From: Eledone cirrhosa
Lineage: Eukaryota
Assembly (NCBI GenBank): GCA_964016885.1
Contig: OZ024742.1
Location: forward strand, 112,468,001-112,532,000
Direction: 5' to 3'
DNA: 64,000 nucleotides
In this document: in pieces, positions 15,866 to 62,590 of the stretch
How the letters are laid out: the number at the start of each line of letters is the position of its first letter
Numbering within the stretch: the first letter of the stretch is position 1
Made by a program: the position numbers and the translations under genes
The notes under the pieces: model-generated
Databases searched by the model: none
What the model was told of the DNA's origin: nothing
The model's input: only the letters and a program-made list of their open reading frames with translations

Positions 15866-16052
15866 GCCGTGGATTGGCAGTATCGGTAGAGGGTCGGACG
15901 GCATGCTTTCCAGCATAGTTACGTCCCTTTACGATCTGAGTTCAAATCCCGCCGAGGTTGACTTTGCCTTTCATCCTTACGGGGTCGATAAAATAAAGTA
16001 CCAGTAATGAACTGGTGATTGCTGGCCTTGTGCCTAAAGTAGAAACAATTAT
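15866..16052 (+). mobile_element. Full-length tRNA-derived SINE (Meta/MESC-core-like)
   Basis: A and B boxes, core CTTTGCCTTTCATCCTTACGGGGTCGATAAAATAAAGTACCAG, AT-rich tail. The direct repeat attatttaatcaattaa on both sides (~15848 and ~16048) is a probable TSD. Confidence 0.9.
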
Positions 16053-17867
16053 TTAATCAATTAAAAACCTTTCGTCACACATTCTGTGACTAGTTGTGTT
16101 TTTTTTTCTTTTTCTGTATATCGTATTGGTTTTCTTCACTATTAGTGTATATATATTTAATGGCTAAATTGGCAAAAAAATCAACCCCAAATATAACAAT
16201 GTATGTTTCAGCACAATTTCACATTAAGAAATTTGCTGTACAAATACATAAACTTAAATAAACATTGGGTCTTTGGAAAATTATTGAGACCAAGAAAGAT
16301 CATGTTTAGAATTTGTTGAAAAACGTTTCGAAACTCGAACACGAGAAACCGCTGTTAAGGCAGCCAAATAACGTGACATGTATATTGGGTAAACATACCA
16401 CTAGGGACAGCGAACAATGGCCCATGATCACTATGTAGAGACAGAAAGATGTGAGATGGGTGAAAGGAAGATGATTGAGTGAGTAGTATTTGGAAATAGT
16501 GGTGTGATAAGTGAACGAGAAAAGGAAGAAAGTGGAGACTAATGTTACAATAAGTGTCAGGAATAAAGCCACAATATTTTCAAGACAATCGAAAATTACA
16601 GCTGTAACAACTTAAACCCCATCAGATAAGACGAACTGATAGACGAATCAAGGAGCGAGGAAATATACACACACCATCACATCGCCCGTACAAAGGAAAG
16701 GCAAAGCCCTATGCTGGAAGTGACAGGGAACATAATTGACATATAGGAGCAGCAAACCTTACCTGAAAAGGAGCACTCGAAGATATGGAAAACAAAAGAA
16801 TGTAGCCTGTCCCAGACCGTGCTATACCTGTATGTATATATATATATACAGAGAGAGAGAGAGAAAGAGAGAGAGAGCGAGATGTGTGTTTGTGTGGTGG
16901 AGGGGTGACCCTGGTGTATCTAAAATGATTCATAAATATTATGCAAATAATTTGTGATAATAAATGTCACAAGACTGTTTATGTGATGACAAAAAAATGT
17001 AACGCGGATATTATAGATATCAAGATATAGCTATACATACCTACAGATTGTGCTGCTGTAAAGTTATGTACCAATCCTGTAGGCTTGTTTATGTTGTTGA
17101 AACAATAAAAGAACTACAAATTTCGCCAATAATTCTTTGAAAGTAATGTTATTTTCCTTGCGAAGAAATGCCAATATGCCTGATTCTTCTCAAGTTTAAA
17201 GAAATGTATTTAATACTGAATATTTTGCTATTCATAAGCAATCACAAACCTCAAGTTTAATCGATATTCCATGACTATACAAGCCTTCAGCTTTTCCGTT
17301 ATGTGTCTCTATATATTTTTCTATTTTCTTGTCTCTTACCTTTCAAATGGTCTTATACATAACCGAATTTCTATGTTAGAGAAAATGATAAACAAATCTA
17401 CAATCTGTGGCTGGAGTTCTAGACTTTCAACAATGTTGTTCAGGTTTGCTTTCACGTGGCTTCAGATAAATGTGCTATAGAAAAAAAGGGGACACGTCGG
17501 CAATACATTATATAATGGCACACATTTTTTCATTATAGCTAGCCAATTCATGAAAGTATCAATGCATTAAAAAACATATTTGCGACTACAACAACGATGA
17601 GATTTACTTGTGTGATTGATATCGGGTGCGACTCTTATTGTAACATTATTTTCTACACAAACACACACATCACATGCATGTACGCACACACGTTGATACA
17701 GACGAGTGTGCACATGCACCCACACAGCCTTATGCATATATACTTATATTATTATAGAATTTTAAGCATAGAATATATATGTATGATATTATGTTGTACA
17801 CATTCATAGCCATATTGTTAACAATAAAAGTATATACATATACATACATATACATATACATATACAT

Positions 17868-18254: not shown

Positions 18255-18410
18255 TTATCCCGGGTTCAATCAGGGGTAACCACAGTAGGTAAGGTACTCA
18301 ATATTGTCTGCAGGCCTAGAACTGTTTCATTCGTGAGAAATCATCAGGAAGCTTCCTGATGATTTCTCACGAATGATGATTTCTCACGAATGAAACAGTT
18401 CTATTCCTGT
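18252..18410 (-). mobile_element. PLE-tail fragment folded back on itself, with degenerate hammerhead
   Basis: Palindrome centred on ggaagcttcc (~18348-18357). CTGATGA-tttc tcac gaat-GAAA-cagttcta on both arms. The + arm has a 17-bp internal duplication. Confidence 0.6.
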
Positions 18411-23214: not shown

Positions 23215-23218
<4 letters not shown>

Positions 23219-24320
23219 TAAGTTAAAAATGTACATCTACATATGCATACTGAAATACTAGTGTGTATATGAATACACACACGTATACATATGTAGGTGT
23301 ACCAAGTCTTTCACTGGTCGCTTTGCAGTGAGCGGCCAGCTATTCTGTATGTAAACACACAGACAAACCGGTTTTTAGAGTCATACTGGTTTTTCGGGGG
23401 AACACCTTCCCCCTTTTCTTCAGAAAGCCAGACAAGGAATATTGAACTAGTTTCGTTGTTGTTACAACTCATCAGCAATATTTACCTATCTACCGGCCTT
23501 TCTGGAGAATTGTAAAAGCACATATCGTTATATGCTTTTTCTATGAAAATTAGTAGTGGGCAGACTAATTTGCATAGAGTGTGAGTACGCACCGGTTCAG
23601 CGGAGACGATAAAAACAAATAACGAAACGAAATTAAATTTCGTTTCGTTTGTAACTCACTTTTGTATGACTGACGCTTAAACAATTAAGTGAAAGACTTG
23701 GTACACCTACATATGTATACGTGTGTGTATTCATATACACACTAGTATTTCAGTATGCATATGTAGGTGTACATTTTTAACTTAATTGTTTAAGCGTCAG
23801 TCATACAAAAGTGAGTTACAAACGAAACGAAATTTAATTTCGTTTCGTTATTTGTTTTTATCGTCTCCGCTGAACCGGTGCGTACTCACACTCTATGCAA
23901 ATTAGTCTGCCCACTACTAATTTTCATAGAAAAAGCATATAACGATATGTGCTTTTACAATTCTCCAGAAAGGCCGGTAGATAGGTAAATATTGCTGATG
24001 AGTTGTAACAACAACGAAACTAGTTCAATATTCCTTGTCTGGCTTTCTGTAGAATAGGGGGAAGGTATTCCCCCGAAAAACCAGTATGACTCTAAAAACC
24101 GGTTTGTCTGTGTGTTTACATACAGAATAGCTGGCCGCTCACTGCAAAGCGACCAGTGAAAGACTTGGTACACCTACATATGTATACGTGTGTGTATTCA
24201 TATACACACTAGTATTTCAGTATGCATATGTAGATGTACATTTTTAACTTAATTGTTTAAGCGTCAGTCATACAAAAGTGAGTTACAAACGAAACGAAAT
24301 TTAATTTCGTTTCGTTATTT

Positions 24321-24325
<5 letters not shown>
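23215..24325 (+). mobile_element. Retrozyme-like insertion of a 468-bp unit: one inverted unit (23215-23690) plus ~1.36 tandem units (23688-24325), flanked by (TA)n
   Basis: tgaaagacttggtacacc recurs at ~23689 and ~24157 (468-bp period). The left part is a near-perfect reverse complement. Each unit contains a hammerhead and no credible ORF. Confidence 0.8.
23988..24032 (+). ncRNA. Type I hammerhead ribozyme, canonical core (inverted copy at 23438-23482 on -)
   Basis: aatattg-CTGATGA-gttg taacaa caac-GAAA-CTAG-TT^-caatatt. 7-bp stem I, 4-bp stem II, palindromic stem III AACTAGTT. Confidence 0.9.
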
Positions 24326-24746: not shown

Positions 24747-27011
24747 TCACTCGAAATCTGCTAATAGCAATGGACGGTAACGCTTGAAAAAGTGATAAGA
24801 CATTCAGACACTATTTACCGTGTTCATCCTCATATTGGTCAGTTGTATGTATTTGCTTTTCCGAATCACTTAGATTTACATTGTCTGTCATTAATTATTA
24901 TTGACGTTTAAAGCAACGTAAAGCCTCATGAGTGTCGCGTTAAATCAATATCAGTTTCAGCGGATGTGGAGGCATACATAAACATCACAGTTAGTAGTGT
25001 ATTAACAGATTTGCTTCATCTTTCATTTTCTCTATATATCTTTCATTCATAGTCTGGAGCCGACATATGTTTCGTATTTGAAATTTTCTAAAATAAAAGT
25101 GTGCATACATTCATCCAAGGTACATTAATATTCCTTCATGGAAGACTTAATCAGTTGGTAGTTATCAGACCACAAGCCGTTCGACGCAGGTTTCCCTTCA
25201 GAGGGAAACATTTGCTGATATTCCTGCTGTAGTTCCCTGACTGATAAAAGCAAATAGGAAATACAAACATCAAACTAAACTGAAGGTTGTCGTATATAAA
25301 GACATGTCCATTAATCTTAATCCTCTATAACAGTAAAATAAACTGCGTCGCTATATACCAAGTATTAATTTATTTCTTCAAGTGAGATGAAACTTAGTTT
25401 GCTTATTAGATTGCGATGACGGTTGATCTTGAGCAGAATGCATTAACAGATTTGAATAAAAAACCGACTATACGTGTACACGCTGTAATATTATGATTTC
25501 AGGCTTCTCTATGCAACTTACCACGAAAAGAACAAACCAAATTGTTGATGTGGCAAAGTTTCAATGATTGATTTGCTTCTTGGTTAATGCTGATATCGAC
25601 ATACATCATGTCAAGAAAATATTGTTAATTTCGAATAAGTGGTTAAATCTGGCTCAATTGTCCAGGTGAATGCATCATTGAAATCACACATAAATCACCT
25701 TACTGTCTTAGAAATTAAAAGACATATTTTATAATGTGATTGCAGATATTTGCAACTTCATAAAATAGACGAGGTGCGTATATTTGGAACGCCTTAGATC
25801 ATAGATGTTCACAATTATCATGGATTTCGGGCGAAGAAACTTCGGGCGAAGATTCAGTAATGTCTATTATTAAATCGGATGAACAACTATACACATGACC
25901 TGTGCTCCACAGCACATCTCCAAGCAGTACAGGGATCTTCCAACTTGGTTATAAATTCAATACAGCAAAACAAATTGCGAGATCAGTTAGCAGTTTCAAT
26001 GGATCTTTTCCCACATGTCTGGGTAGCGCATTTGACGTTCTGCCCAATGGAGCAAGTTGCTATCATAAGAATTCATTTCAAAGATACATTTAATTATCAC
26101 AATTAACGTATTTATTTTTAATCTGAATTAAATTACTAATTTAAAATAATTATGATTTTTTTTTTACATTCATTACAATTGAATCTATATCAAATACGAA
26201 AAGTAAATGTCAATGAAACCGAAGACAGAGCATTCGCATGGTCACACAGACATTCATTCCTAAATTTACGTAAAATATATTCGTTCATACATACATTCAT
26301 ACATACATACGGACATACATACACACATACATATATACATTTGGATTTAATGCTCTGAAAGAGCGATATATATGTGAAGACAAACATAGAATATTCGAAA
26401 ATATTCTGTATGTTTATAATAAACATTTTGAAGACCTAATCGCTATAGAATAGAATACGTCACGTATTACAATTTGAGATTCTCGATAAAAGCAAGGGAA
26501 GTAACCTACGCGTTTCATTCTTATTTGAAATCATCAGGATTACATATCCAATGCTTTTATCGAGAATGACGCAGCTAGAGACTTATAGAATACTTAGCTG
26601 TGTACAGAAACTGGTTTGAAAGAGCGGTTGCCGGTCCGGCAGAAATTAGAATTTGGATTTAATGCTCTGAAATAGCGATATATATGTGAAGACAAACATA
26701 GAATATTCGAAAATATTCTGTATGTTGATAATAAACATTTTGAAGACCTAATCGCTATAGAATAGAATACGTCACGTATTACAATTTGAGATTCTCGATA
26801 AAAGCAGGTCTTCAAAATGTTTATTATAAACATACAGAATATTTTCGAATATTCTATGTTTGTCTTCACATATATATCGCTATTTCAGAGCATTAAATCC
26901 AAATTCTAATTTCTGCCGGACCGGCAACCGCTCTTTCAAACCAGTTCCTCTACACAGCTAAGTATTCTATAAGTCTCTAGCTGTGTCATTCTCGATAAAA
27001 GCATTGGATAT

Positions 27012-27054
27012 GTAATCCTGATGATTTCAAATAAGAATGAAACGCGTAGGTTAC
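27012..27054 (+). ncRNA. Type I hammerhead ribozyme, copy 1
   Basis: gtaatc-CTGATGA-tttc aaataa gaat-GAAA-CGCG-TA^-ggttac. Palindromic stem III ACGCGT. Enclosed by the 16-bp helix attctcgataaaagca/tgcttttatcgagaat. Confidence 0.9.
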
Positions 27055-27323
27055 TTCCCTTGCTTTTATCGAGAATCTCAAATTGTAATACGTGACGTAT
27101 TCTATTCTATAGCGATTAGGTCTTCAAAATGTTTATTATAAACATACAGAATATTTTCGAATATTCTATGTTTGTCTTCACATATATATCGCTATTTCAG
27201 AGCATTAAATCCAAATTCTAATTTCTGCCGGACCGGCAACCGCTCTTTCAAACCAGTTCCTGTACACAGCTAAGTATTCTATAAGTCTCTAGCTGCGTCA
27301 TTCTCGATAAAAGCATTGGATAT

Positions 27324-27366
27324 GTAATCCTGATGATTTCAAATAAGAATGAAACGCGTAGGTTAC
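27324..27366 (+). ncRNA. Type I hammerhead ribozyme, copy 2 (third copy at 26501-26543 on -)
   Basis: Identical to 27012-27054 and 312 bp downstream. Confidence 0.9.
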
Positions 27367-28928
27367 TTCCCTTGCTTTTATCGAGAATCTCAAATTGTAA
27401 TACGTGACGTATTCTATTCTATAGCGAGTAGGTCTTCAAAATGTTTATTATAAACATACAGAATATTTTCGAATATTCTATGTTTGTCTTCACATATATA
27501 CATTTGTATTAACCGCACACCTACATTCGAATGAGTCGATATTGTTCAATCGAGGAAGGCAGTGAATTTGGATTGAACCTGTCACTGAGTAGTTTCAGTT
27601 TAAATTCCCTCATCACACAACTAAACCAACATTCTTTCTTATGTTGACTCCCTTCCCATTTCATATTCTCATTGGTTCTATGAAACAATTATCAAGTGTA
27701 AGTGTTTACAATAGTCGATTCAATCAACTAAACCAGATCTATATCAATATACTGTGTGTATTGCTAATGTTGGAAACTAATACGTTTTATACAACTGATG
27801 AAGAAGAGGAAAAAAAAAATAACAAAAAACTGAAGATAAAAATTAGAAACATTAGGGCAAATGATATCGTTCTAACTTAGACTGAAGAGGTTGCTACTTT
27901 AATCTATCTATATAAGCAATTACATTTGTCAGTCTAGTGTTTGTTACATTTACACGTACAGAAACCAAGATAGGATGTATCACATCTTTAGTACCATCAC
28001 ATATTTATGTGAAAGTCAATAAATGAGGTGAAATGAGAAAATAATTCTTAAGGCTAGTACTCACATGCGTGTAGCAAATACTATCTTTTTACTCTCCCTT
28101 AACGTATACAATATGACTTTTGTAAGAAGCAATGCTGTAGAGATAATATCATTGAACAGCGAAATACGAATTAAGTAATACCATAGAAAAGGACAGCAGC
28201 TTAATTGTCTTGGTCGCTTTTACAACGCGACACAATAATATCTAGACATGTGAGTTGTCACACCTGCACTGTGCTAAATGTCGAAATGAGTATCAGATAT
28301 TTTTTTCAACCAATTCATTACTAGAGAAGCGGGTGAGTGAAAAGATAATCTAGAGTATATACAATGTAATGTTTACCTGTTTCTGTATTTAGTTCAGTTC
28401 CACACGTTTCTCTTTTTAAATAATAATGTTCGTGTGTCCTATTTACATTTACTTTGCTGCAGCACTTGTTATTGTTCGATTTCGTTCTTCATTCATTTAA
28501 ATCAAATGTAATAATTTTAATCATAAAAAAAGTGAATTATTCTCAAATTGCCTTCATAAAGCTTCCTCTACATTCCAAGCCAAGACAAATGTCAGGAAAA
28601 AACACTAAATAAATAGGTTCTAAATTTTTACGTCTCTTATCAACTGAGTGCGTAAAACGTTATAACAGATTATAAAACCTTATAATACTTTTTTTTTTAA
28701 ATTCTTTTACGATAAGATTAATGTTAGATTAATGGGTTCTATATAGGTATATACACATATAGATTGTTAACATGATCTCTTGATGAATATGCATATCATT
28801 TGATTGTGTAGATACATTTAATTTGATTGAGATTCTTGTATATTTTTTTTTAATATATAGCTTATATGGTTAACAGTTCTAATGAACTGTAAATCATTCA
28901 TGCATTTATGTTTTTGTGTATTTATTCT

Positions 28929-30521: not shown

Positions 30522-30682
30522 TTGGCCATGCTTTGCAGCAAAGAGTTACGTCCCTTTATGGTCTGAGTTCAAATCCCGCCGAGGTTAACTTTGCCTTTCA
30601 CCCTCACGGGGTCGATACAATATAGTACCAGTTATGTACTGGGATAATTGCTGGCATAGTGCCAAAAGTAGAAATAATTATT
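30522..30682 (+). mobile_element. SINE copy, 5'-truncated
   Basis: B box and core match the family consensus. Confidence 0.85.
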
Positions 30683-30966
30683 AAGGTTTCTCACACGCAC
30701 CCTCTGTATTATATGTACATTTGTTCATGTCTCAATCTTAAGGTATATAAATATTGAGTTTTTGGCATATCTTATTCACTACCATGACTGAATCGTAACC
30801 ATCAACTATGTCAGGATATGTCATGCATCATCTTATTTTATCTGATGAGGACGTACTGTTGAAGTTAGCTCAGTACCTCTGAAATATGTATAATAAAATA
30901 TATTTGAGCACACGAATGTCTATTTTTGTTAATATTTGAATTAATATATATATATATATATATACT

Positions 30967-31007
<41 letters not shown>

Positions 31008-31012
31008 TGAGA

Positions 31013-31064
<52 letters not shown>

Positions 31065-31369
31065 CAAATGCTGAGTTGCTCACAAATATTCTACGCGTTG
31101 GTTCGGTTCATTGTTGTTGTAGTCAAAGAATATCATAGGTGTTTTCTGCAGCGCGCGTGAGGCAAGTTATAAATAGTATTATTTATATGTATAAGAATGC
31201 GATAAATAAAGAATGGGAGCTAGTGTGAGGAAGGGAAACAGTATTATTGAGATTAGAATAGTGTGAATAGAATTGGGCACCTCTGTGCACACTTTAACCT
31301 ATTATCTCTCTTTCTTTCACTCACATCATTCTATTTCTCGCGACGCATCGGTAGTGACGTACATTTTAA

Positions 31370-31745
31370 AATAAGTGTTTCTACTTTTGGCACAAGGCCA
31401 GCAATTACCCAGTACAATACTGGTACTTTATTTTATCGTCCCCGTAAGGATGAAAAGCAAAGTTAACGTCGGCGGGATTTGAATTCAGATCGTAAAGCGA
31501 AGTAACTATGCTGGAAAGCATGTCCGACTCTCTACCGATACTACCAATAATTGTTTCTACTTTTGGCACAAGGCCAGCAATTACCCAGTGTATTACTGGT
31601 ACTTTATTTTATCGACCCCATAAGGATGAAAGGCAAATTTAACCTCGGCGGGATTTGAATTCAGAATGGCAAGGGCCGTAACTCTATGCGTCAAAGCATG
31701 GCGTCCGACCCTCTACCGATACTGCCAATCCACTGCCAATCCACT
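31370..31745 (-). mobile_element. Two tandem SINE copies
   Basis: Consensus repeated at ~31370-31548 and ~31549-31740. Confidence 0.9.
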
Positions 31746-32999: not shown

Positions 33000-35900
33000 T
33001 ATTTACGCTGTTACAGTTTGTTCAAAAGAATGCTGTTGATGACAACAGTCTTAGTAGACTGGGTTTCCTTCAGAAACACTCAGACATTTTCTTTTCGTAT
33101 TCCGCGGCTAAGGGCTACAACAGTTAACCGTGTTGGAATACAGGTCATTCCAGATAAACCAAGACGTTTTCCATAGTTTGTCCTTGTGCTTTATGAATAG
33201 TCATAGCGAAGCACGATTGAACTTGGAATTGGCTTCGGGGCAAAGGGATATCCTCAACTTCGGATAGATTAATTCTTATTCTAGGTATCATAACGATCTC
33301 ATTTCTGAAAGCATCAGTGTTGATTCTTGTTACTATGAGATTGTCGTGCAGTTCTTCCACGATCATGCGCGTTCCATAACAAAGCCTTTGAGGATTCAAG
33401 TTTCTCATGAGAATTATTGGCGATCCTTTTTTCAATTTAAGGTTATGTGGTGGCAGTTCTGATAGTTCAACCAAATCAAGGAATTCAGTCGGGAAATGAG
33501 TGGCACTGGCACCATCACTCACAGAAGTATAGGATCCGTACTCTTTTATGGTTCCAGGGAAGCGTGTGGTACATGTGGAATTGATGCTTCTCATCATTTC
33601 ATTGACAGGTACTAAGATGCAATTGTTCGAAAACACTTCAGCTGCATTGTCGAATGAGGGGTAGATGAAATCAATACATTCTTCAATAGTTGTTGCTTGG
33701 AGAACCATTTCTTTCGCAAACTAATTTCCCCATTTTCAGTTTTTGTTACCTTATCTTCTCTAATATCCAATAGGAACTGTGAATAGTCTCCTGCTCCCCA
33801 CCCAATCGCATGTTTGTCTTCAACTGAAATCTTTTGAAGATTCGCCATAAGTAGGATTTTTTAATGCAGGCGTTTTCCACGTCCGCTTCATTTTCCCTTT
33901 TTACTACCGAAGGAAGCTGACGTAAATCGCCACAGCAAATTGACACAATTCTACCGAATGCCTCATTGTTGTCGCATATGTCACCCAGAGTGAGGTCAAC
34001 AGCTTCGAAGCTTTCCCTCCGAATCATCGGACAATCATTCCAAACAATGAGGCTTGAATGCTGGAAGAGGTTTCCCGTCTTTCAGTGTTTATCAATGTTG
34101 CACAGACCATTTTCTTTCTTTCACTACTATCGGTATTTTGAACCTAGAATGCGCTGTTCTTTCACCAGGCATCAGTGTTGCGGAAATGCCAGATGCTGCA
34201 ACAGCAATAGCCACGTCAAAGATTCCCCTGACTTTTGAAAATAATTAAGTTAATCAGGAGTGTCTTTCTTGTTCCACCTGGAGCGTCAATGAAAATCAAT
34301 GCAGATGTGTTCGTCTCTAAACTGTTAAAAACGAAGTCGTACACGTGTTTTTCACTATTCGTCTCTACTCTTCTCTGCTGTATTGCAATTCATGCAATAA
34401 CTCCAAATTGCCAATATCCTGATCAATATTATTTGGCCTTGGCAAGTTAAAGTCACTAAGACTTTTGCTCAGGTCGTTAAGTTTGTCTTCAAAATACAGA
34501 ATACATTGATCAACATGTCTCTCGCTAATCAAAATGTTAGAGTTTCTGGTAGCCCTTTTTTCTATTTGATGGTAATCCTCAGACAGCGAATGCTTAAATC
34601 GAATACATAAATCACTGGAATTGTCAATTTCCGTATTTCTGAGGAGCACGATGAATAGATCCCTCACAGCTTTGGTAAGCCTTGTTCGCTCAGCATCTTC
34701 CAGAGTCTGCTGCCAATGATCATCCATTGAAGCAAACCTTTCTCTCTGTAGACGTCTTTGAATAATGGCAGGAGTTCTCCATCACACATTTTCAAAGAGT
34801 TGAAGGATACTGGCCCTTTGACGTGTTGCAGAAGGAGTCTTAAATAATACAGGTCACAACTTCGTGGAGAAACAGTGTATACTCGTCCCAAAACGTTCGC
34901 CTCAAAAATCATGGATACTGCTCAACTGTTTCCCCAACCTTTCTCCTTCGGCATAATACAATGTTTTTGCAAACGGATCGCGATCGCAAGGATCCATGAA
35001 CTCAGTCAGAGTCGTCTTAGCCATGTTATTGTTTACTTTAACAGCAGCATTGACCCGAAAGAAGATTTGATTTTCCTCAGGTAGATGAAGTTGAAGGCGA
35101 ACTACGGGCGGTTCTTTCTGACGAATTGGAAATCCAAGTACCAAGTCAACAGCTTCTGAAGGACCGATATATCTTCCTGTTAAATACTGTATTATCTCAT
35201 CTTCCCTGTTCACTCCAAACATTGCCCGATCACTGCCCTTCATGGTATATTTGATAATGTATTTGATCGATTTCACGGAAGAGCACATATCTACGTTTAG
35301 GTGGCAGTTGAACAGTTTCAATAGATACATATTTTAGGGAACCACCCATTCCGAAGTTATAATTCGGCTTCCCCTTTCTTCTTGGTGCACCTCAAATCCT
35401 CCCATTCCCGGAGACCGTCTTCTGTACACAGGATAAGAGTCCTCTCCACACAATGTATATTCATTGAAATGCTTAGGGTACCGCTTACTGCACGTTCCAT
35501 CTTTCTAACACGGCGAATTGTTAGAGCAATTCGGACCGTGGATAATGTGCTTCAGCACCACTTCATAACCCTCTGGATCTTTGATTGGATCTGGTATTTC
35601 GGCTTGAACAAATTTATCATATTCTTGCGGTCTGGGCTTGGAGGATTCATTGAGCCATAGCAAACAGTGCACATGAGGAAGACCTCGATTTTGATATTCG
35701 ACTGACAGCACATAAGCAATGCACTTGCCAAATAGGCCATCTACTCCAGTAATATACTTTCTTAACAGTTTCCGGTTCAGGTCAAATACTCTGGCAATTA
35801 AATCTGGCCTGTCATGTGGCTTCTGATTCAGGAATAGGTTTTGCCGGATTTCAGGTCAGTTTGGGTTGCATGTCATTGTGATGAAGACAAAGGATTACCG

Positions 35901-37400
35901 TATTTCAGTATGTAAATCATGGTATCCTGGCATCGCTCCATCATATATCTCGGTCCACCGACAAATATCATTCGCCAATATTGCGAAAATCGTCATCATC
36001 ATTCAATGCGTCAGTAAGGCCCTTGTATGTTGTAGATCGAAATGATGTTTGATTCATTTGGATGTATTGCAGCCTATCTCCTTCAATCTTCGCAGCCATG
36101 TCAACCAAATATTGCTGAAACAAACTACCGCCTCTGAGGAGTTAGTTAAATTCATCGTCATGGTTCATTATTCGATAGCCATAGTAGCGCATTGGAGTCA
36201 ACTTCTTGTTGTTGGTCATTAACAGCTCATGATGCAATCCGTCATCGCCAAAAGGAAACAACTAGAACATACTGCAAACTGTCATAGGACCGATGGAAAT
36301 CTGAGATTATTTGCAATTGTCCGCCTTTTTCTCTCAACACAATGTGCCGTGATGTTCCTTGAAGTTCGGTGCTGTTTTGTATAATAACGGCAACTTCGTT
36401 TGCAATTTGTGCATTGAATCTTCTCTCATGTTCCATTGCTGGTCTCCCATCAGGATCAATAATAGTCGAAGTTTCGGTAATATTTTTAATTTCTTCTTTT
36501 GCCTTTCGAAATGAAGCAACGTAAGGGTTATATTGTCTGAGTATTATTTCCAATAGTTCGACTATGTCGCGCTGAAATGCCATCGTTATGGAGTATCCTG
36601 ATCCTCACATCAACACTATCCTGAAGATCCAAGAAGTAAATTTGAAGAAATTTGGGTTGTTGGTTGGGATTAGGGATTAAGGAACCGATGTAATGGTGAA
36701 TTTGACCATGAATAACGATAGAAGGATTCCATCCACTCCTTGAGGAACGAACTTCTTCGGTCCCAAAAGATGTCATTTGGAACAGGCAGTTGTATTGTCT
36801 GAGGTTCCTCCTGAACTCGTTTGCCCTAGCTGGATCAGTACTAAATAAACTGTGAAGTTCCTGGGGTAAAGGCTGCAGATTACCCAACCTGACTATTCCA
36901 TTCATACAGCAACAGTTAGTAGTTTCACCATGAAAAAGCATTGCATGACAACAGACACATATCTTATTCGTCTGTCAGCAGAGAGGTCACGTCGTTGAAC
37001 TGTCCTTGCTCTATCCCTAATGGTTTGTTGGCAAATACTTTCAGTTCTCTGAGCGTCCGATTCATGATCTCTCCTTCTTCTGTCTCTCTCCCTCTGTTCC
37101 GCCTGACGCTCAGCTCTCCGACCATCCGATTCATGATCTCTCCTTCTTATGTCTCTTTGCATCTGTTCCGCCTGACGCTCAGCTCTCCGACCATCCGATT
37201 CATGATCTCTCCTGCTTCTGACTCTTTTCCCCTGTTCCGCCTGACGCGCAGCCCTTGCTTTATCAGTCTCATCGATCCTTCTGTTTGTATGCCTGTCCCG
37301 AACTTGTTGGCGTTGACCACTATCTTGCTCACCTTCTTCGGCTCTACTTAGCCGTGCTTTCTTTCCACTATCGATAGCCCAGCCATATTGTTTCTTTCTT
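33000..37400 (-). pseudogene. Helitron RepHel (HUH/Y2 Rep plus PIF1-like SF1 helicase), multiple stops and frameshifts
   Basis: FRRNLRQYNCLFQMTSFG, GQIHHYIGSL, RSYDSLQYVL, FITMTCNP, DRPDLIARVF, VEYQNRGLPHVHCLLW (HUH), IKYIIKY..KGSD (Y2), LYYLRLLL, FIDAPGGTRKT, GDLRQLP, CFAMTIHKAQGQT, VALSR. Confidence 0.95.
37055..37255 (-). repeat. 66-bp coding tandem repeat (~3 copies) in the RepHel N-terminus
   Basis: ccgattcatgatctctcct recurs every 66 bp. Encodes RRRDHESDGRRAERQAEQ-type repeats. Confidence 0.85.
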
Positions 37401-39137: not shown

Positions 39138-39336
39138 ACGGAGAAAATGTGGTAAGCAACAAGTGGACCATAAAGCACCAAAGTACTCAATACTTAGTGT
39201 AGTAGAGAGGGTAACGGGAACGAGTAGGACCCCGACGGGTGAGCTCAAGCCGTTTGGACGGCTAATTCTGGACTAATTGAGTCCAGAATTAGCCGTCTAA
39301 ACGGCTTGAGGCTCAGCCGTCGGGGTCCTGCTCGTT

Positions 39337-39340
<4 letters not shown>
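39138..39340 (-). mobile_element. PLE 3'-tail fragment (family B) with ~60-bp inversion, in (TA)n
   Basis: Reverse-orientation relative of 5052-5260. Palindrome centred at ~39277. Confidence 0.75.
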
Positions 39341-39519: not shown

Positions 39520-40385
39520 CTATAAGTTAAAACAATTAAATAAACATTCAAGTCATTAGAAATATACTTCACTGCTTTACGATCGTTTCTAGTTGATAAT
39601 AATACATTGAACGCATATTTCGTTATCGATATATGTAGGGTTAGTTACAAAATATCAAATAGGGAATATATTTACCTACATTGATATCATCAGCCGTTGT
39701 CAAAAGCAATGAACATTTTATTCAAAATCAATAGTAAATTGAGTACTATGACCTTATTTGGAGGTAGCTGAAGAACAAACCAATCAAATGTTTTTTTTTT
39801 TGGAATATCATATTAAGATGAAATATAACTCACTTTAGTTGATGACATGACCCTTTGAAAGGAATGGTTGAATGGTGTTAAAAATAGAATTACTATAAAG
39901 AACCTATGAATAAAAAGGAATTGTTATATTGATAGTGGAATGTAGATGGTGGAGTGAAGTTTAAAATGGAATGTAAATATAAAATATACAGAAATAACTA
40001 GGATAAATAAAGATAGGTAAACTAATGGTCATAACTAGGAAGGATAGTATATTAAAAGATGAAAATTAAAATAAGATAATAAAATATAATAATATAATAA
40101 TATAATATACTGTAATATAATATAGTACAGTATGGTACATTCTATATAGTATAATATAGCGTATGATGCATCATAAAATATAAAATACTAAATATGTTCA
40201 AGTATATAAATAATCAAACTCAGATAAATGCATGTTGACATATAGTCAAAACGCATAATTTTCTTAGACCAAAAAAGTACATATATTCACATATATAGAT
40301 AAATGTACAATTGATACTCCTTTAAAAACACACATACGCATGCATAGATATAAACATATACTAATACATACATACACGCACTCAA

Positions 40386-40449
<64 letters not shown>

Positions 40450-40484
40450 ATATCTATATATATATTTTGAGTATATGTTGGTTG

Positions 40485-40515
<31 letters not shown>

Positions 40516-42088
40516 TTATACATACATATATACATGTACACACACATACATGTACATACACATTATACACACACATACACATATACACACATATATATAT
40601 ACATATATATATAGACATATGCTCCTACCCAGGCATTACAGGTGGTTATGAACCATAATGCCCTTAGTCAGTAACGCATGAATCTATGGATGCTAAAAAA
40701 TTAAAAGGTTAAAAAATAAAAAAAATAAACAGAAAGGCGTATAATTAGGGGAAGGTGATACTAACAAATCGTACGTCACATAGAACTATAGTGAGTTGCT
40801 ATTTAGAATGTTTAATTAGGTTTATAGTACTTAAATGTTCTTCGTATACGGTGATTACAAGCTATAATCAGTCCTGTCTTTTATTCAAAACATCGTCCTT
40901 AGATTTATTATTTCCAAGATCTTCCCGGAACATAATCTGCATTCTCTCCTGTTCCCAAGATATGGAGTTCTTTGCAGAATGGTATTCCATGATAGCTTGG
41001 AATCTATTTTTTTTCTTTTTATAGTTATTTACTGCTTCAGCTAATGATGTGGTGTTAGCTAGTTTAGTAATGTTAAAGCTACTGGAATGTGCGTAATATA
41101 TTTTCTTAAATGTGTTCGTTCGATGTAGATCCTATATATGATTTGTTGGATTCCGCAGTAGACACAGTGCATTTATATATTACATTGTTAATCAAACAGT
41201 TGCCAGTTAAGGGGCAAACATTTCTATTTCTGCAATTACAACCATACGTAAGATGGTTGTTGGTGTACCTACATAATTCTCATTAATCCTTGAGTTATTC
41301 TTATTGTAATTAATGTTAGAGAGAGAATGAGTGCTGCTTTGTGGGTGATTTAGTGCTGGGGTTGTATTTTGATTTTGTGTTATGTTGTTTTTGTGTTGGT
41401 GATTTGGGTTGTTGTGTTTTCCAGGTTGAAGGATTGTATTATTTGTCCTTTTAAAAGGTGCAGTCTTATTTAAATTATATTGTGGTGGTGTGGTCATATT
41501 ATCCTTAAATGTATAAATGTTGTAGTTGCATTGTGTGATCTAGAGTATGAGAATTTAACAGTATACCTGTTAAATATTTGTTGGCATCTGTGGTTTAGTG
41601 GAAAATATTTATGTAGAAATACTAAACTAGCTAACACCACATCTTTAGCTGAAACAGTAAATAATTATAAAAAGAAAAAAATAGATTTCAAGCTATCGTG
41701 GAATACCATTCTGCAAAGAACTCCATGCCTTGGGAACAGGAGAGAATGCAGATTATGTTCCGGGGAGATCTTGGAAATTACTAAATCTAAGGACGATTTA
41801 TTGAATAAAAGACAGGAAATGATTATAGCTTGTAATCACCGTATACGAAAAATATTTAAGTACTATAAACCTAATTAAACATTCTAAATAGCAACTCACT
41901 ATAGTTCTATGTGACGTACGATTTTTTAGTATCCCCTTCCCCTAATTATACGCCTTCCTGTTTATTTTGTTTTATTTTTTAACCTTTTACATTTTTAGCT
42001 TCCATGCTTTACTGACTAATGGCATCAAGGTACATAACCACCTGTAATTGCATGGGTATATATGTATCTATGTATGTATGATAGGAGA

Positions 42089-42125
<37 letters not shown>

Positions 42126-43128
42126 CGTATATGTGTATGTGTGTGTGTATATGTGTATGTACATGTATATGTGTATGTACATGTATATATGATTCTATAA
42201 GTGTGTGTATATATATATTTATATATTTGAGTGCGTGTAGGTATGTATTAATATATGTTTATATCTATGTGTGCGTATGTATGCTTTTAATGGAGTATCA
42301 ATATAATTAAACCTCTATCTATATATGTGAATATATGTACTTTTGTGGTCTAAGAAAATGATGCGTTTTGACTATCTGTCACATGCATTTATCTGAGTTT
42401 GTTTACTCATACGCTTGAAAATATTTACTATTTTATATTTTATGATGCATCAAACACTATATTATACTATATACAATGTACCATACTGTAATACATTATA
42501 TTACAGTATATTATATTATTATATTATTATATTTTATTTCATCTTTTAATATACTATCATTATTAGTTATGCCTATTAGTTTACCTATCTATATTTATCC
42601 TAGTTATTTCTGTATATTTTATATTTACTTATTTATGTTCACCTAAAAATTCCATACAACACAACTCAACATTTAATTGTTACATTCCTTTTTACACTTC
42701 ACTCCACCATCTACATTCCACTATCAATATAACAATTCCTTTTTATTCATTGGTTCTTTATAGGATCTCTATTTTTAACACCATTCAACCAATCCTTTCA
42801 AAGGGCCATGACCTCAACTAAAGTGAGTTATATTTCATCTTAACATCATACGGCAAAAAACCATTTGATTGGTTTGTTCTTCAGCTACCTCCTAATAAGG
42901 TCATATAACTCAATTTACTATTGATTTTGAATACAATGTTCATTGCTTTTGACAACGGTTGATGATATACATGTAGGTCAATTATTCCTTATTTGATATT
43001 TTGTAACTAACCCTACATAGATCGATAACGAAATATGCATACGATGTATTATTATCACATAGAAACGATCGTAAATCGGTGAACTATATTTCTAATGACT
43101 TAAATTTTTATATCATTGTTTTAACTTA
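39520..43128. mobile_element. PLE arranged as a long inverted repeat (arms ~39520-41070 and ~41620-43128) with GIY-YIG remnants
   Basis: Arms are diverged reverse complements. Plus strand: TTSLAETV..KLSWN..CRLCSGE..LLNKRQEMIIACNHR. Minus strand spacer: IFNRYTVKFSYS and CNCRNRNVCPLTGNCL..VIYKCTV..YIGST. Confidence 0.9.
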
Positions 43129-43349
43129 TATATATATATACAATGATATTAAATAAATGGAAACTATATTTATAAAACCATATTTATTCTATTATATATA
43201 TTTCAAGGGTACCAAAACCCTGGTGTGTTTTATAAATTTTGACATAACCAACGAAAATAACTTAACGGTTCAAGTTTTCCTTGAATTATATATAATAGAA
43301 TAAATATAGTTTCCATTTATTTAATATCATTATGAATCCGTATTTAATA

Positions 43350-44702
43350 TCAGTATGAACCCGACGGCAGAGCTCAAGCAGTATTCATTTTCGGCCCATA
43401 TCTGGGACCTCAGATGTAATAATATAACATACAATCTCACTTGGATCTTACTGTCCAGACCTAACTCTTACACGGGAGGACGCTCGATGAAAACATTACA
43501 AATGTTGTTTTCGAAGGACCAACTCCTAAACAGGAAGACGAACTGGTAACCACATGCAAACACAGATTGCATAGGACTTACCTCGCCCTCAGACCCGATA
43601 AGGACCTGGGTGGGTAGACAAGGGCTGATACCCGCCACTTGCCGATTTTGTCAGGGGAAACCCCTGCTTACATAGGTAGACGTACCTTTTTCTTTTCCTC
43701 TACGTTTCCTTCTTCCCCATCTCATCCTATCACTTCCTTCCACCCCCGATTTCTCTCTCGTCTGTTTTTCACCTTTCGCCTACCCCGATGCAGCCCATCG
43801 GTTTTTTGTAGCCTCAGTACCCGCACCCCCGTAAGTTTAAGATAGAATTGGCCGATTACGCTTTATTAATAGCAGATGTGTTAGACACCTGTAATTTCTT
43901 CTTTTTTGTTACTACTCAATTTCTACAATCTCTAAATTTCTTATTTAGTATTATTTTTTTCTCAACTTATTAACCTGTAATTGTAAGATAGCATCGGCTG
44001 ATTACGCTTTACTATTTATAGAAGCTGTGTTCGACCCCCTATAAAGCCTGCTTTAAACATGTTTTCACTACCAACTACAATCTCTTACTTAGTATTTTCC
44101 CATTCTCTACCTATTATACTTTTCTATAGCTTAGCAATCCCTTCTTATAGCAGATGTTTCTAAACTCTACTGTTTTTATATTTTTATTCATTTCTCACTA
44201 TCTAAACATTTTTTTTAGACATTTATTATTTCTTTATTCTTATTTTAATTTTACTCCCTTTCGACTTACCTATACTTTCAACCCCCCTCCTCCTTTTTTC
44301 CATTACAATTTTTCGACTTTTCATATTTTATCCTTAGAATCTGCTGTATAGATTTCTCTTTCAACGCCTGACTGGCTTTCTTCACTCCCTCTTTGTTCTA
44401 CCGGCAAGTTCTGCCACCCTACCTCCCACCAAATGCCATGATAGAATTATTTGTCTTTATAACAAATTTTGACCAGTCCTATTGACAATTACTATCTTCA
44501 TATATAAAGAATTACCCCTTGATAAGTTTCGCTATTTATTTACCAGGCTATATATTCTTACTTAGTCCAGAAATAGCCGTCGAAACGGCCTGAGCTCTGC
44601 CGTCGGGGTCATACTTGTACTTATTACCCACTCTACTACACTAAGTATTGAGCACTTTGGTGCGTTATGGCCCATCTGGTTCCTTACCACAATTCCTTCA
44701 TT
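43350..44702 (+). mobile_element. PLE 3' portion (family B): GIY-YIG C-terminus, ~1-kb 3' UTR and terminal ribozyme-like fold
   Basis: FSAHIWDLRCNNITYNLTWILL..LLNRK../CKHR. Ends with the same tail as 5121-5260 followed by (TA)n. 43352-43379 is a short inverted copy of the tail. Confidence 0.8.
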
Positions 44703-44911: not shown

Positions 44912-44981
<70 letters not shown>

Positions 44982-44986
<5 letters not shown>

Positions 44987-45513
44987 TATGTACACGTACA
45001 TACATATATGTATACAGACGTACAGTAGTATGTATATATATATATATACATACATGCATTATAATAAATGTTCGGTAAATCAATAAGTACATATATATAT
45101 ATACGTGTGCATGTATGTATATATATATACATACTACTGTACGTTTGTATACATATATGTATGTACGTGTACATACTTATATTTAAGTAACAGCCGTACT
45201 AAGTGTGGGAAATGAAATTTCGTTTCATTTTTCCGTTTATCGTTTTTGGTGCACCCGGCCGATTAACCGACTCGATATGCAAATTGGGCTACTCAGCCGT
45301 TAACATGCATAAGGTAAGTATATGCGTTCAATAATCTGGCAGGAAGGTATACGTTGCTGACGATAGCTAATAAGCTTGAAAGTAGTACAGCGTTCCTTTG
45401 TCAGTGTTGAACAAACGAGCAACGATGGTTGCTGGACACTACGGCTTAATACGGGATGTATGTTTACAAACACACCGATCATTATAATAAATGTTCGGTG
45501 AATCCATACGTAC

Positions 45514-45544
<31 letters not shown>

Positions 45545-45677
45545 CATGTATGTATATATATACATATACATACTACTGTACGTCTGTACACATACATGTA
45601 TGTACGTGTACATACTTATATTTAAGTAACAGCCGTACTAAGAGTGGGAAATGAAATTTCGTTTCACTTTTTCCGTT

Positions 45678-45680
<3 letters not shown>
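44982..45680 (+). mobile_element. Retrozyme-like insertion of a ~423-bp unit (~1.45 tandem units) with ~75-bp 5' inversion, flanked by (TA)n
   Basis: attataataaatgttcggt at ~45058 and 45481. 44982-45058 is the reverse complement of 45108-45181. Shares motifs with the 468-bp unit. Confidence 0.75.
45351..45393 (+). ncRNA. Type I hammerhead ribozyme with one stem III mismatch
   Basis: acgttg-CTGACGA-tagc taataa gctt-GAAA-gTAG-TA^-cagcgt. A G-to-C change at 45382 would restore the ACTAGT palindrome. Confidence 0.75.
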
Positions 45681-45708
<28 letters not shown>

Positions 45709-53702: not shown

Positions 53703-53732
<30 letters not shown>

Positions 53733-53839
53733 GTATTTTCCGTTGTGTTGTAATATAAATATTACACACAGTAGATTAACAGCTCACGTAGAGTTTGCTC
53801 GACGGTTCCAGTTGAAATTCCAAAAGTAATCCGGAGAAA

Positions 53840-56434
53840 AATAGAAAGATTTGAATGGATACAGTTTAGTTGAAAGGAATTTATTGACACGTGTTTCTAT
53901 AACAGTTACATAACCTGAAAACAGCTGCTATCTACAAAGTATTAGTGATGCAGACAAGCAATATTTCAATGTTATTATTTACTGTCATTTCATCAGAATA
54001 ATATTACTGAGGACCTGTTTGGTTTTTATAGAAAATATTAGGAGAGAGGGGTGAAGTTGTTAGAATAATAGTTGAGGGAGTGGTTTTTTGATACCAGTGA
54101 GAATTTTTGGTGGCAGTGAGTAATTAGATTCCCATCTGTTGTTTTGACATTTTTATAGAATATATTATTGGTTATTTTTCTAAATCTATAGAGGGATTAG
54201 AGATAGTAAAGATATGCGTGGTTGGTTTTGTGTTTGCACTTAATTAACATTCAGACTTAAATTTTTTTTTTCTTTTCAGTGTACGTATCCTTTCACCCAC
54301 GCATTCTCACACAAACATATTTGCACCCCTCTACAAAATACATATACTCACATTCACATAGTAACATGTTCATACTTACATACATATACACATGCATACA
54401 TATATATATACACACATGTATTCATGTACATACATACGCGTTCATGTGTGTACATTTTCATACTCAACATATCTTTATATACACACGTATAGACACACAC
54501 ATATATACATACTCTAGTCTATGTGTATATATATACATATACATATATATCTATCTATATATATATATATATATATATATATAAGCACTTTAATACATGA
54601 ATACACTTACATCTAACTATACACATCAAACATATATATATAATTACATATTTATATACATTTTCACATATATATACATACTTATGGTCGCTTTTAGACA
54701 CATTCATTATCGCATTTTTGCACCTATTCTCATCAGCATACCTTTCCATTATTAGTGTGGTAATTTGAGGTTATTAATATACATATATATGTTGAGAAGA
54801 AATTGTTTTTATATTTTTCTAACTAGATTGAGGTCTATATAGTTGGGGGGATGTCCCTCTTTTATGTAATATTCGGCTTGTAGTGGGAAAAAAGGGTTTT
54901 AGTTCGGTGACGGCAAAATAATGTTCGTTCAATTCTGTTATTCAGCAATTTCTTCTTGTGTGTGATTAGGACTAACTATAACATATGAATACAACCTTAA
55001 AGTAGTTAACTTCCTGGATGTCACACTCAATTTAAACTCTGGTCTGATTAAACCGTCTCATAAATTGAATGAAAATCTCAAATACGTAAATGTTGGGTCT
55101 AACCACCCCATCTCTATAATTAAATCTATCCCTAAAAATATTTCCATTAGAATCTCGGGTCTATCTTCTAACATACAAGTATTTAAGGAACACGCCGAAT
55201 ACTACGATAACGCCCTTAGTAAAGCAGGCCACCTCAACAAAATAGAGTATATAGATGGGAACAATCAAAACACCCAAAATAAATCCCACATAGGTAGATA
55301 TAATAACACAACACCAAACCACACTTACTACCATAGTATGCACACCAGTAAACCAACAAACAAAACTAATAGAAAGCGATGCAAAAAGTACTTATGGTAT
55401 AACCCCGAATACAATAGTTCCATTAGTACAAATTTACCAGTACTCTTCTTTAAAATAATTAAGAGGCATTTTCCTACATCACACACATACCACAAAATCC
55501 TAAACCCTACCACTATAAGACTGTCATACTCTACAGCGTTAAACCTTAAACAACACATACAAAAGATCAATACTAGAAGGTTAAACGAAAACACTAAAAA
55601 CTTAAGTACAAAGAACACAAAAAAAGCAGTAGACAATACACTACAGAACATAAATAAACCACACCTAAGTTCGTCCGCAATACTACTCCAGAGAAAACTC
55701 AACGTACACAACTGTAACTGCACCTATCCTGACAACTGCCCCCTCGGCAATAACTGCCTGGAAAAAAATATTATTTATAAGTGTACCATTAAATCCGGAG
55801 GCAACGAGTGGTATTACGTGGGATCAACGGCAACATCGTTTAAATCTCGATTATATAGGCATTCTTACTCAATAAAACACCAGAGCCAAAGAAATGTAAC
55901 AACTTTAGCAGAAAAAGCTTGGACGCTCAGGGATAGCGATCAAAATTTACCCTAAAATGGGAGAAATTAGCTAAAACCCAAAGCTTTTCCAGGAGCCAAC
56001 ATTTCTGCAAATTGTGTAATCTTGAGATTTATTACATAATCACACACAAGAAGAAATTGCTGAATAACAGAATTGAACGAACATTATTTTGCCGTCACCG
56101 AACTAAAACCCTTTTTTTCCCACTACAAGCCGAATAATACATAAAAGAGGGACATCCCCCCCAACTATATAAACCTCAATCTAGTTAGAAAAATATAAAA
56201 ACAATTTCTTCTCAACATATATATGTATATTAATAACCTCAAATTACCACACTAATAATGGAAAGATATGCTGATGAGAATAGGTACAAAAATGCGATAA
56301 TGAATGTGTCTAAAAGCGACCATAAGTATGTATACATATGTGGAAATGTATATAAATAAGTACATATATATATATGTTTGATGTGTATAGTTAGATGTAA
56401 GTGTATTCATGTATTAAAGCGCTTATATATATAT

Positions 56435-56522
<88 letters not shown>

Positions 56523-57215
56523 GTATATATATATACACATAGACTAGAGTATGTATATATGTGTGTGTCTATACGTGTGTATATAAAGATATGTTGAGTA
56601 TGAAAATGTAAACACATGAACGCGTATGTATGTACATGAATACATGTGTGTATATATATATGTATGCATGTGTATATGTATGTAAGTATGAACATGTTAC
56701 TATGTGAATGTGAGTATATGTACTTTGTAGAGGGGTGCAAATATGTTTGTGTGAGAATGCGTGGGTGAAAGGATACGTACACTGAAAAAAAAAAAAAAAA
56801 ATGTAAGTCTGAATGTTAATTAAGTGCAAATACAAAACCAACCACGCATATCTTTACTATCTCTAATCCCTCTATAGATTTAGAAAAATAACCAATAATA
56901 TATTCTATAAAAATGTCAAAACAACAGATGGGAATCTAATTACTCACTGCCACCAAAAATTCTCACTGCTATCAAAAAACCACTCCCTCAACTATTCTTC
57001 TAACAACTTCACCCCTCTCTCCTAATATTCTCTATAAAAACCAAACAGGTCCTCAGTAATATTATTCTGATGAAATGACAGTAAATAATAACATTGAAAT
57101 ATTGATTGTCTGCATAACTAATACTTTGTAGATAGCAGCTGTTTTCAGGTATGTAACTGTTATAGAAACACGTGTCAATAAATTCCTTTCAACTAAACTG
57201 TATCTATTCAAATCT

Positions 57216-57222
<7 letters not shown>
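53840..57222 (+). mobile_element. Young 5'-truncated PLE with ~1.13-kb near-perfect inverted arms (53840-54975 and 56030-57222)
   Basis: Arms match almost base for base except for microsatellite length. The spacer encodes the RT thumb, linker and GIY-YIG. Confidence 0.92.
54980..56135 (+). pseudogene. PLE ORF 3' part: RT C-terminus, Cys-rich linker, GIY-YIG endonuclease (tentatively Naiad-like), frameshifted after 55955
   Basis: VNFLDVTLNL, YVNVGSNHP, WYNPEY, HKILNPTTIRLSYS, CNC..CPLGNNCL..IIY..YYVGST..FKSRLYRH, then KWEKL..CKLCNLE and LLNNRIE..CRHR in shifted frames. Confidence 0.9.
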
Positions 57223-61712: not shown

Positions 61713-61889
61713 AAATTTAGGATGATCACAAGATAAAACTAGCAAATGTGTATAGTCTTTGTTTCCGTAAGCGGAACAGAGTGAAAAATAGGTATGTTAG
61801 TATTTTAGATATGGTATTAGTTCTCAACTGCGTCGGTTCAATTAAGAATATTACCTTTCTTCATGCGTTGCCACTTATCATTTATTATG

Positions 61890-62073
61890 AATTGGCAGTA
61901 TTGGTAGAGGGTTGGACGCCATGCTTTCTAGCATAATTACGTCCATTTACTGTCTTAGTTCAAATCACGTGGAGGTTAACTTTGCCTTTCATCCTTACGG
62001 GGTCGATGAAATAAAGTACCAGTAATATACTGGGTTATTTTCTTGGCCTTGTGCCAAATGTAGAAACAATTAT
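61890..62073 (+). mobile_element. SINE copy
   Basis: Matches the family consensus. Confidence 0.85.
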
Positions 62074-62292
62074 TTTTACCCCCAAATCGGGTATGTAATA
62101 CATTTTGTTGGGTTTAGGATTTTAGATACATGACAAGATCTTTAACGAGTATAGAGTGGGAGCCTAGATTTGAATGACGAAAATCACCAATTTGATTGGA
62201 CAAGCATTCGATACAGATTACTTTTTGGTGTATATATATTACTGTTATTCTATCAAATCCATTATAAAATATATTATTATTTAAGTGGAAGT

Positions 62293-62590
62293 ATGGCAGT
62301 GGATTGGCTGTATCGGTAGAGGATCGGACACCATTATTTGAAGCATAGAGTTATGGTCCTTTAGGATCTGAGTTTAACTTTGGTTAACTTTGCCTTTCAT
62401 ACTTACGGGGTCCATCAAATAAAGCATCAGTAATGCACTCGGGTCGATTTAATTGATTGTTACCTTCCCGTCAAAATTACAGGCCCTGTACCTAAAGTGG
62501 GAATCATTATTTAAGCGGAAGTAGAGTGGTGGATTGGCAGTGTCGGTAGATCATCGGATTCATGCTTTGTGCTCTGAGTTCGAATCCTGT
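62293..62590 (+). mobile_element. Older SINE copy (longer 3' subfamily) plus a partial second head
   Basis: Head ggattggctgtatcggtagagg, core, extra gggtcgatttaattgattg segment. Second head at ~62525-62590. Confidence 0.75.

Follow-up and report, generated by a model that had tools for sequence, protein, structure and literature searches.

Non-LTR retrozymes of metazoans have been described as short, non-coding tandem units that carry a type I hammerhead ribozyme (PMC7229834) and co-occur with Penelope-like elements (PLEs; PMC7229834; bioRxiv 10.64898/2026.07.22.740005), and in the accessible text of the latter two sources animal retrozymes are proposed to be non-autonomous derivatives of PLEs. 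So far, mobilisation by PLEs has been argued from shared ribozymes, co-occurrence and the phylogeny of pLTRs. Insertions of PLEs themselves have been characterized in some detail: an inverted 5' copy, a partial tandem and a tail at either end are given as hallmarks in the available parts of PMC8557442 and PMC3846280, and Hydra, Neptune and Naiad PLEs target (TA)n or microsatellites, as far as the accessible portions of the respective papers go (PMC8557442, PMC11167929, PMC3846280). According to the available text of PMC11167929, the PLE tail is, in vitro, the distance between two sites in a stem-loop at which the reverse transcriptase (RT) starts; both strands of AT-rich DNA are cut, and the main substrate is RNA that has not been cut.

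A hammerhead repeat with an internal promoter is also known from the newt, where the ~330-bp satellite 2 (PMC2220036) uses an snRNA-type promoter (PMC2220036, citing Coats 1994), and Penelope pLTRs contain an internal promoter as well (PMC2377424), both statements following the accessible parts of the sources. The Octopus repeat annotation lists Penelope-like families, and hammerheads go unmentioned in the available portion of its main text (PMC13282606).

The locus analysed here, called B, lies in a stretch of 64,000 nucleotides ("the window"), AT-rich eukaryotic DNA that is dense in microsatellites according to a tandem repeat finder and contains Helitron and Penelope-like fragments. We conclude, with a probability of roughly 0.85, that B is a protein-less, 423-bp non-LTR retrozyme inserted into (TA)n, and that it was likely copied in by the RT/GIY-YIG protein of a (TA)n-targeting PLE. 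The conclusion is drawn in large part from a comparison of B with a second locus, A, which covers one locus per family and two families only, both from this window.

Layout of the two loci

The unit of B, for which the sequence-only reading had given about 423 bp, is exactly that long (45058-45480, 36.6% GC), and the locus is located inside (TA)n at 44982-45678. The unit of A is one base pair shorter than the 468 bp previously given, with a period of 467 (23836 to 24303). The following features were found at the two loci:

44916..44981, no strand: left side of the (TA)n target (from the sequence and the tandem repeat finder)
44982..45059, minus strand: inverted 5' arm of B, 78 nt, reverse complement of unit positions ending at ACTTATAT
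45058..45678, plus strand: direct arm of B, 621 nt or 1.45 units, head-to-tail
45174..45189, plus strand: small hairpin TACTTA/TAAGTA, with terminus 1 in its loop; second copy at about 45613-45628; in A at 23781-23794
45207..45233, plus strand: large 12-bp hairpin in the tail, with a GAAAYGAAAT arm and a 3-nt loop (z=-2.8)
45339..45401, plus strand: type I hammerhead of B (descriptor scan and covariance model)
45622..45678, plus strand: terminal tail, 57 nt, which the direct arm has and the inverted arm lacks
45678..45703, no strand: right side of the (TA)n target (tandem repeat finder)
23215..23690, minus strand: inverted arm of A, 476 nt, one 467-bp unit plus about 9 nt
23688..24324, plus strand: direct arm of A, 637 nt or 1.36 units, with a 68-nt tail at 24257-24324
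23977-24048, plus strand: hammerhead of A (Rfam HH9, 38.6 bits, below the gathering score of 52)

The two arms meet through an overlap of 2 nt (CA) in B and of 3 nt (AGT) in A. In B, the period changes from 423 at the left edge to 439 at the right edge, the second copy having a longer TA run. Its duplicated parts differ in 9 of 180 columns, and the inverted arm matches the two direct copies in 82 of 90 and 78 of 82 columns, respectively. The copies within B have thus diverged by 5%, in contrast to 0.6% within A and 0.6-0.8% within A and a third family, C.

The unit of B has no protein-coding capacity. The longest ATG frame is 64 amino acids, at a locus that takes in long TA-rich stretches (20 amino acids in A), and the frames of at least 100 amino acids in the vicinity are microsatellite read-throughs. 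An ORF for an RT and a GIY-YIG endonuclease was looked for in the B locus and is absent, and B is therefore not an autonomous PLE. Two candidates for remnants of a coding element were rejected, namely ATGCAAATT as a start codon, the frames of which stop after 15 (A) and 8 (B) codons, and a Penelope-type intron in B, because its AAG/GTAAGT at 45310-45318, which A lacks, has the nearest acceptor-like CAG only some 30 nt away.

B has the attributes by which non-LTR retrozymes are structurally defined, i.e. a type I hammerhead, a short head-to-tail repeat, a GC content below 45% and no coding function. The similarity of A and B to the retrozymes in the accessible text of PMC7229834 extends to the short (423 and 467 bp), non-coding tandem units with 37-38% GC and to the 6-bp stem I, 4-bp stem II and minimal stem III of the type I hammerhead, and they share the co-occurrence with PLEs. 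With 467 and 423 bp they are at the upper end of the 170-400 nt that the available text reports for invertebrate retrozymes. B carries one hammerhead, whereas two consecutive units define an "active" retrozyme in the accessible part of Li et al. 2026; it should be noted that this criterion applies to active copies, not to family membership.

At the same time, B has the features of a PLE-type insertion: a partial tandem plus an inverted 5'-truncated copy, a one-sided tail and a (TA)n target. The adjacent position of the inverted copy, the partial tandem and the one-sided tail resemble PLEs as described in the accessible portions of PMC8557442, PMC11167929 and PMC3846280, and the available descriptions also include the microhomology junction, the (TA)n target and a hammerhead in the repeat. 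Autonomous PLEs differ in having an RT/GIY-YIG ORF, which B lacks, and no sequence link to an autonomous PLE was found in the window; when the non-repetitive cores of both units were compared with its four PLE-protein loci, the best match (E 0.04, 30 nt) was not a real one.

Homology of A and B

The earlier description of the two units as having little overall identity was an understatement, as 270 of 490 columns match over the whole unit. In the non-repetitive core, 199 of 295 aligned columns are identical (67%), the homology has a z-score of 10.4, and not one of 1000 dinucleotide shuffles reached the score; the part upstream of the ribozyme alone has a z-score of 8.3. Thus, A and B are homologous along their length, and the following shared motifs, all of which are present and collinear as had been read from the sequence, are islands in one homologous sequence:

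AATTTCGTTTC, an 11-mer: 23836 and 24303 in A; 45216 and 45655 in B
TTTATCGT: 23857 in A; 45236 in B (45236..45243, plus strand)
octamer ATGCAAAT, within the shared decamer TATGCAAATT: 23895-23902 in A; 45277-45284 in B; plus strand
hammerhead core CTGANGA: 23995 in A; 45357 in B
TGTTTACA, at a hairpin apex in both families: 24113 in A; 45461 in B (45461..45468, plus strand)

The distance from the octamer to the hammerhead, previously given as 73-92 nt, is indeed 92 nt in A, but 72 nt in B when measured to the core. A and B share four exact collinear words of at least 8 nt, two of which have at least 10 nt. Neutral divergence to 67% identity gives a mean of 3.7 such words, and the probability of at least two runs of 10 is 0.36. 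The number of shared words is therefore what neutrality predicts, and the motif list alone is no evidence of selection. RNAalifold, applied to these two sequences only, found double changes in 20 of 62 pairs.

A profile of A and B used with nhmmer against the window matched only A, B and, weakly, C. An Rfam scan of the whole window at the gathering score gave no matches, an exact 27-nt scan against a collection of bacterial and archaeal genomes gave none, blastn against phage records was likewise without a match, and no tRNA head was found in the window. The window also contains a SINE-like repeat of about 190 bp, both dispersed and in tandem (5846-6030, 10072-10604, 15870-16055, 30525-31738 and 61888-62442), which may resemble octopus SINEs, and a decayed Helitron-like Rep/Pif1 helicase element at 33145-37400 (Pfam Pif1_2B_dom).

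The hammerhead ribozymes

The presence of a ribozyme motif in the unit was supported by a covariance model built from A and C without B, which found the motif of B with 41.6 bits and an E-value of ~2e-8, a roughly calibrated figure. Its parts are the core CUGACGA at 45357, a 4-bp stem II, GAAA at 45378, a loop 3 GUAG, UA, and a stem I of 6 bp followed by an internal loop and a long extension (45326-45412); the cut is predicted to occur after A45387. Between A and B the stems have changed in a compensatory manner, with two double changes in the six pairs of stem I and three in the four pairs of stem II. Rfam E-value scans of B revealed no hammerhead, but only sub-threshold look-alikes, mostly of microRNA families, which were rejected.

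Hammerheads usually have a G-C at positions 10.1/11.1, a pair described as highly conserved (PMC4209133), whereas B has U.U. The same is true for C and D, and thus U.U looks like a lineage variant and not like decay. Across the window, U.U at 10.1/11.1 occurs in four unrelated or distantly related motifs (45357; 27018/27330/26537; 51783 on the minus strand; 18356), and the usual G-C only in family A, so that U.U is possibly a lineage-wide variant. A literature search on U-U at 10.1/11.1 retrieved nothing on point, which does not show that it is unreported.

Helix III of B is AGUAGU and non-palindromic, in contrast to the palindromic helices of A and C, and such hammerheads have been reported to work as dimers through the helix III palindrome. 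The hammerhead of this B copy is predicted to be weak, and likely is, because it is a single copy with a non-palindromic loop 3 in the most diverged locus (5%). While B has one motif and A has two in opposite orientation, C alone has two in tandem. At 18311-18409 of the window, a fold-back fragment contains two head-to-head minimal hammerhead-like cores.

Two shared ends and a model of insertion

Two end points are shared by the arms of A and B. At terminus 1, which the sequence-only reading had not contained, the last matching base of both inverted arms is the one that precedes TTAAG in the unit, inside the loop of the small hairpin; this terminus forms the outer end of the inverted 5' arm that B, like A, possesses, and in A both the start and the end of the inverted arm lie at this hairpin. 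At terminus 2, both direct arms stop at GTTT before (TA)n, 3' of the large hairpin; in B this is between GTTT and AT, at the start of TTTATCGT. That the insertions end just after a hairpin and directly into (TA)n had been noticed before, and it holds for both direct arms, 11-13 nt past the 11-mer AATTTCGTTTC. The two termini are 57 nt (B) and 68 nt (A) apart, with the large hairpin between them, the exact ends being uncertain by as much as 4 nt at places where TA is part of the unit. No target-site duplication is readable in (TA)n. Tails of PLEs have been described as 30-40 nt long, and those of A and B are longer. Inverted arms and a two-site tail are not described for the retrozymes in the accessible text of Cervera and de la Peña 2020 and Li et al. 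2026. Staggered ends were also found in three other element types of the window (C, E and J, see below).

The 11-mer AATTTCGTTTC is located on the 3' arm of the large hairpin in A, but across its apex in B. When the hairpins are aligned apex to apex, 12 of 12 pairs are kept, with three double and two single changes. The exact 11-mer may thus be a coincidence of register, and the structure of the large hairpin is the better-supported conserved feature; a one-gap alignment of A and B on the 11-mer may also apply. The proposal of an RT-recognition hairpin gains support from these 12 pairs and from the position between homologous ends, and the hairpin remains a candidate for this role. It has an analogue in the stem-loop at which the PLE reverse transcriptase starts in vitro, according to the available text of PMC11167929. 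The start site in the Poseidon element of Frangieh et al. is an AC-rich stem-loop, whereas the hairpins of A and B are AU-rich. The two ends likely mark where a borrowed Penelope reverse transcriptase starts copying.

We propose that a PLE protein would bind the tail region and nick both strands of the (TA)n tract, and that reverse transcription would start at two adjacent RNA sites in the tail. The two cDNAs would grow towards each other and join via the 2-3 nt overlap, and the product would be an inverted arm, a direct arm and a one-sided tail. Because three of the arms, both direct ones and the inverted one of A, continue across the predicted cleavage site, the RNA template would have been a circle or a multimer that had not been cleaved, and not a cut linear monomer. 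At one unit and some 9 nt, the length of A's inverted arm would suit a single round of a circle, but also a multimer. The unit would not be self-sufficient, but would need the PLE enzyme in trans. To call it a self-contained module, as had been suggested, goes too far, since it encodes no protein.

PLE copies and other families in the window

The layout of an inverted arm, a direct arm and staggered ends is also found in ORF-bearing PLE copies of the window, for example in element E at 53720-57220. This is a 5'-truncated Hydra-like PLE with an ORF at 54966-55955, frameshifted near its end; its product corresponds to the C-terminal portion of a PLE protein and includes a GIY-YIG motif and a CxCX5C linker. 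DKT is present in all seven and RWK in four of the seven database relatives of this protein, and both are marks of the Hydra clade, which inserts into (TA)n (PMC8557442, in its accessible part). These features of element E match the Hydra clade. Element E further has an inverted pLTR, a TA microsatellite within the pLTR, a roughly 110-nt tail and, at 57067, a doubtful hammerhead-like core.

Further decayed PLE copies are located at 12490-14770, 39525-43126, 1-330 and ~43330-43570; one has a DKG motif and (CA)n flanks, one is a large fold-back with Hydra-like endonuclease remnants, and two are short fragments. The PLE fragments of the window were not recognised with Pfam. A family of small, TA-flanked fold-backs with staggered ends, J, is present at 5053-5259, 39138-39338 and 44562-44699. 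One J copy has an end that is similar to terminus 2 of B for about 14 nt; a copy is also found some 280 nt upstream of B, where (TA)n insertions are clustered.

Family C (26339-27500) has a 312-bp unit, an inverted arm of 468 nt with a 28-nt tail, and a direct arm of 2.2 units. It contains three type I hammerheads, two of them in tandem, with a palindromic ACGCGU and U10.1.U11.1, and its copies have diverged by 0.8%. C is the best candidate in the window for an active retrozyme.

The octamer

Coats and colleagues reportedly described the newt satellite 2 promoter, in 1994, as an octamer plus a PSE. In a literature search for an octamer in promoters of retrozymes or hammerhead satellites, the citation of Coats 1994 was the only result. 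Satellite 2 belongs to a different lineage, and its likeness to A and B is one of description.

The exact octamer recurred at the homologous place in 63 of ~60000 neutral simulations (null ~1e-3), a value that is post hoc, the motif having been picked after the fact. Elsewhere in the window octamers are as frequent as expected by chance (6 observed, 6.2 expected). In B, the octamer is the 5' arm of an imperfect hairpin with 45302-45311. The hairpin has 9 of 10 pairs in A (z=-5.2) and 8 of 10 in B (z=-0.8), and all three differences between the families lie on the partner arm (chance 1 in 8). The element TGTTTACA agrees with the human snRNA 3' box consensus at 10 of 12 positions in both units (null 0.06); it is the best match in both, tied in B, to a consensus that is human and not the host's. 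Scans of both units with human U6, H1 and consensus PSE motifs yielded nothing above background, the best matches (9/12 in A, 8/12 in B) being at non-homologous places, and the PSE of the host may differ.

Downstream of the octamer, the direct arm starts after 260 nt in A and after 204 nt in B. In A, B and C (23688, 45058 and 26806), the start of this arm falls -12 to +42 nt from a TGTTTA motif and its length is 621-695 nt, which would fit a defined 5' end of the template or a length limit of the enzyme. The exact octamer is absent from family C, which has only ATCCAAAT. By chance, about one in three stretches of 312 nt should contain an octamer with one mismatch, and ATCCAAAT was rejected as an octamer homologue because C is unrelated to A and B upstream of the ribozyme (z 0.4-0.5).

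By analogy with pLTRs, the family is likely transcribed from an internal, pLTR-type promoter, and the octamer is a plausible candidate for a part of it.

Discussion

Several other explanations of these loci have to be considered. Some Tc1/mariner-derived elements likewise have long inverted repeats and are flanked by TA, and the region is rich in microsatellites, so that MITE-like DNA transposons, or DNA-level events such as fold-back, slippage or an assembly artefact, might have generated the repeats. This is very improbable: the arms are head-to-head, unequal and staggered by the tail, there are real substitutions between the copies (0.6-5%), the hammerhead stems covary, and the identical layout recurs with PLE ORFs. 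It is also quite unlikely, albeit less far-fetched, that A and B are 5'-truncated pLTR pieces of two autonomous PLE families with ORFs elsewhere in the genome. PLE insertions are often 5'-truncated, this window contains many truncated PLE copies, and hammerheads and tails are found in pLTRs. However, both loci return to the unit after the tail (467 and 423 bp) with no start or remnant of an ORF in between, and in A the inverted arm makes one full turn of that 467-bp unit.

The role of the octamer is a separate question within the retrozyme reading. The sequence-only reading had envisaged a self-contained promoter-ribozyme-priming module, and this can be extended to a self-transcribing snRNA-type Pol II cassette in which the octamer would be the distal element, transcription would start 200-260 nt downstream, and TGTTTACA would serve as a 3' box. 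The exact collinear octamer, the confinement of the hairpin differences to the partner arm, the top 3'-box score in both units and the spacing to the starts of the direct arms would agree with such a cassette, for which there are precedents in newt satellite 2 (PMC2220036) and in the internal promoters of PLE pLTRs (PMC2377424), as far as the accessible texts describe them. Nevertheless, we regard it as rather unlikely. The octamer was selected post hoc and is paired in both folds, octamers in the window and shared words do not exceed expectation, neither A nor B has a match to human-type PSEs above background, and family C, which is also recent, lacks the exact octamer. In addition, a functional 3' box should terminate transcription after about one unit, whereas the insertions comprise 1.4 units; the starts of the direct arms may simply reflect cDNA lengths of 620-700 nt (637, 621 and 695); and the octamer-type distal element has been described for vertebrates (PMC5493778) and is not established for this lineage. 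On balance, the octamer has probably been kept as RNA, i.e. as a stem-loop arm or a protein-contact site with no promoter role, or it is just an unmutated stretch. The octamer is base-paired in both families, the fold of the whole unit consists of conserved hairpins, and exact runs of this length are expected at 67% identity, although the hairpin in B is no more stable than shuffled sequences, is missing from the two-sequence consensus fold and shows no compensatory change.

Mobilisation of retrozymes by PLEs had already been proposed; new here is a conserved two-site end signature on protein-less units. The promoter candidate on such units is a second addition from this window, and related families could be listed in the supplements of Li et al. 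The conserved octamer offers a cheap and specific hypothesis for the transcription of retrozymes, one that rests on two sequences. We consider it doubtful that these invertebrate retrozymes are complete minimal retroelements that combine an snRNA-type Pol II promoter with its TGTTTACA 3' box, a hammerhead and a conserved two-site PLE priming cassette; if this were true, a distant invertebrate lineage would share the promoter strategy of newt satellite 2, and there would be an explanation for why retrozymes are strongly expressed in all tissues. For the mobilisation itself, two protein-less families that have diverged by about one-third and share the same two structural landmarks provide direct sequence support for the involvement of PLEs, and the cis element of about 70 nt with its two hairpins could be the minimal priming signal of a PLE.
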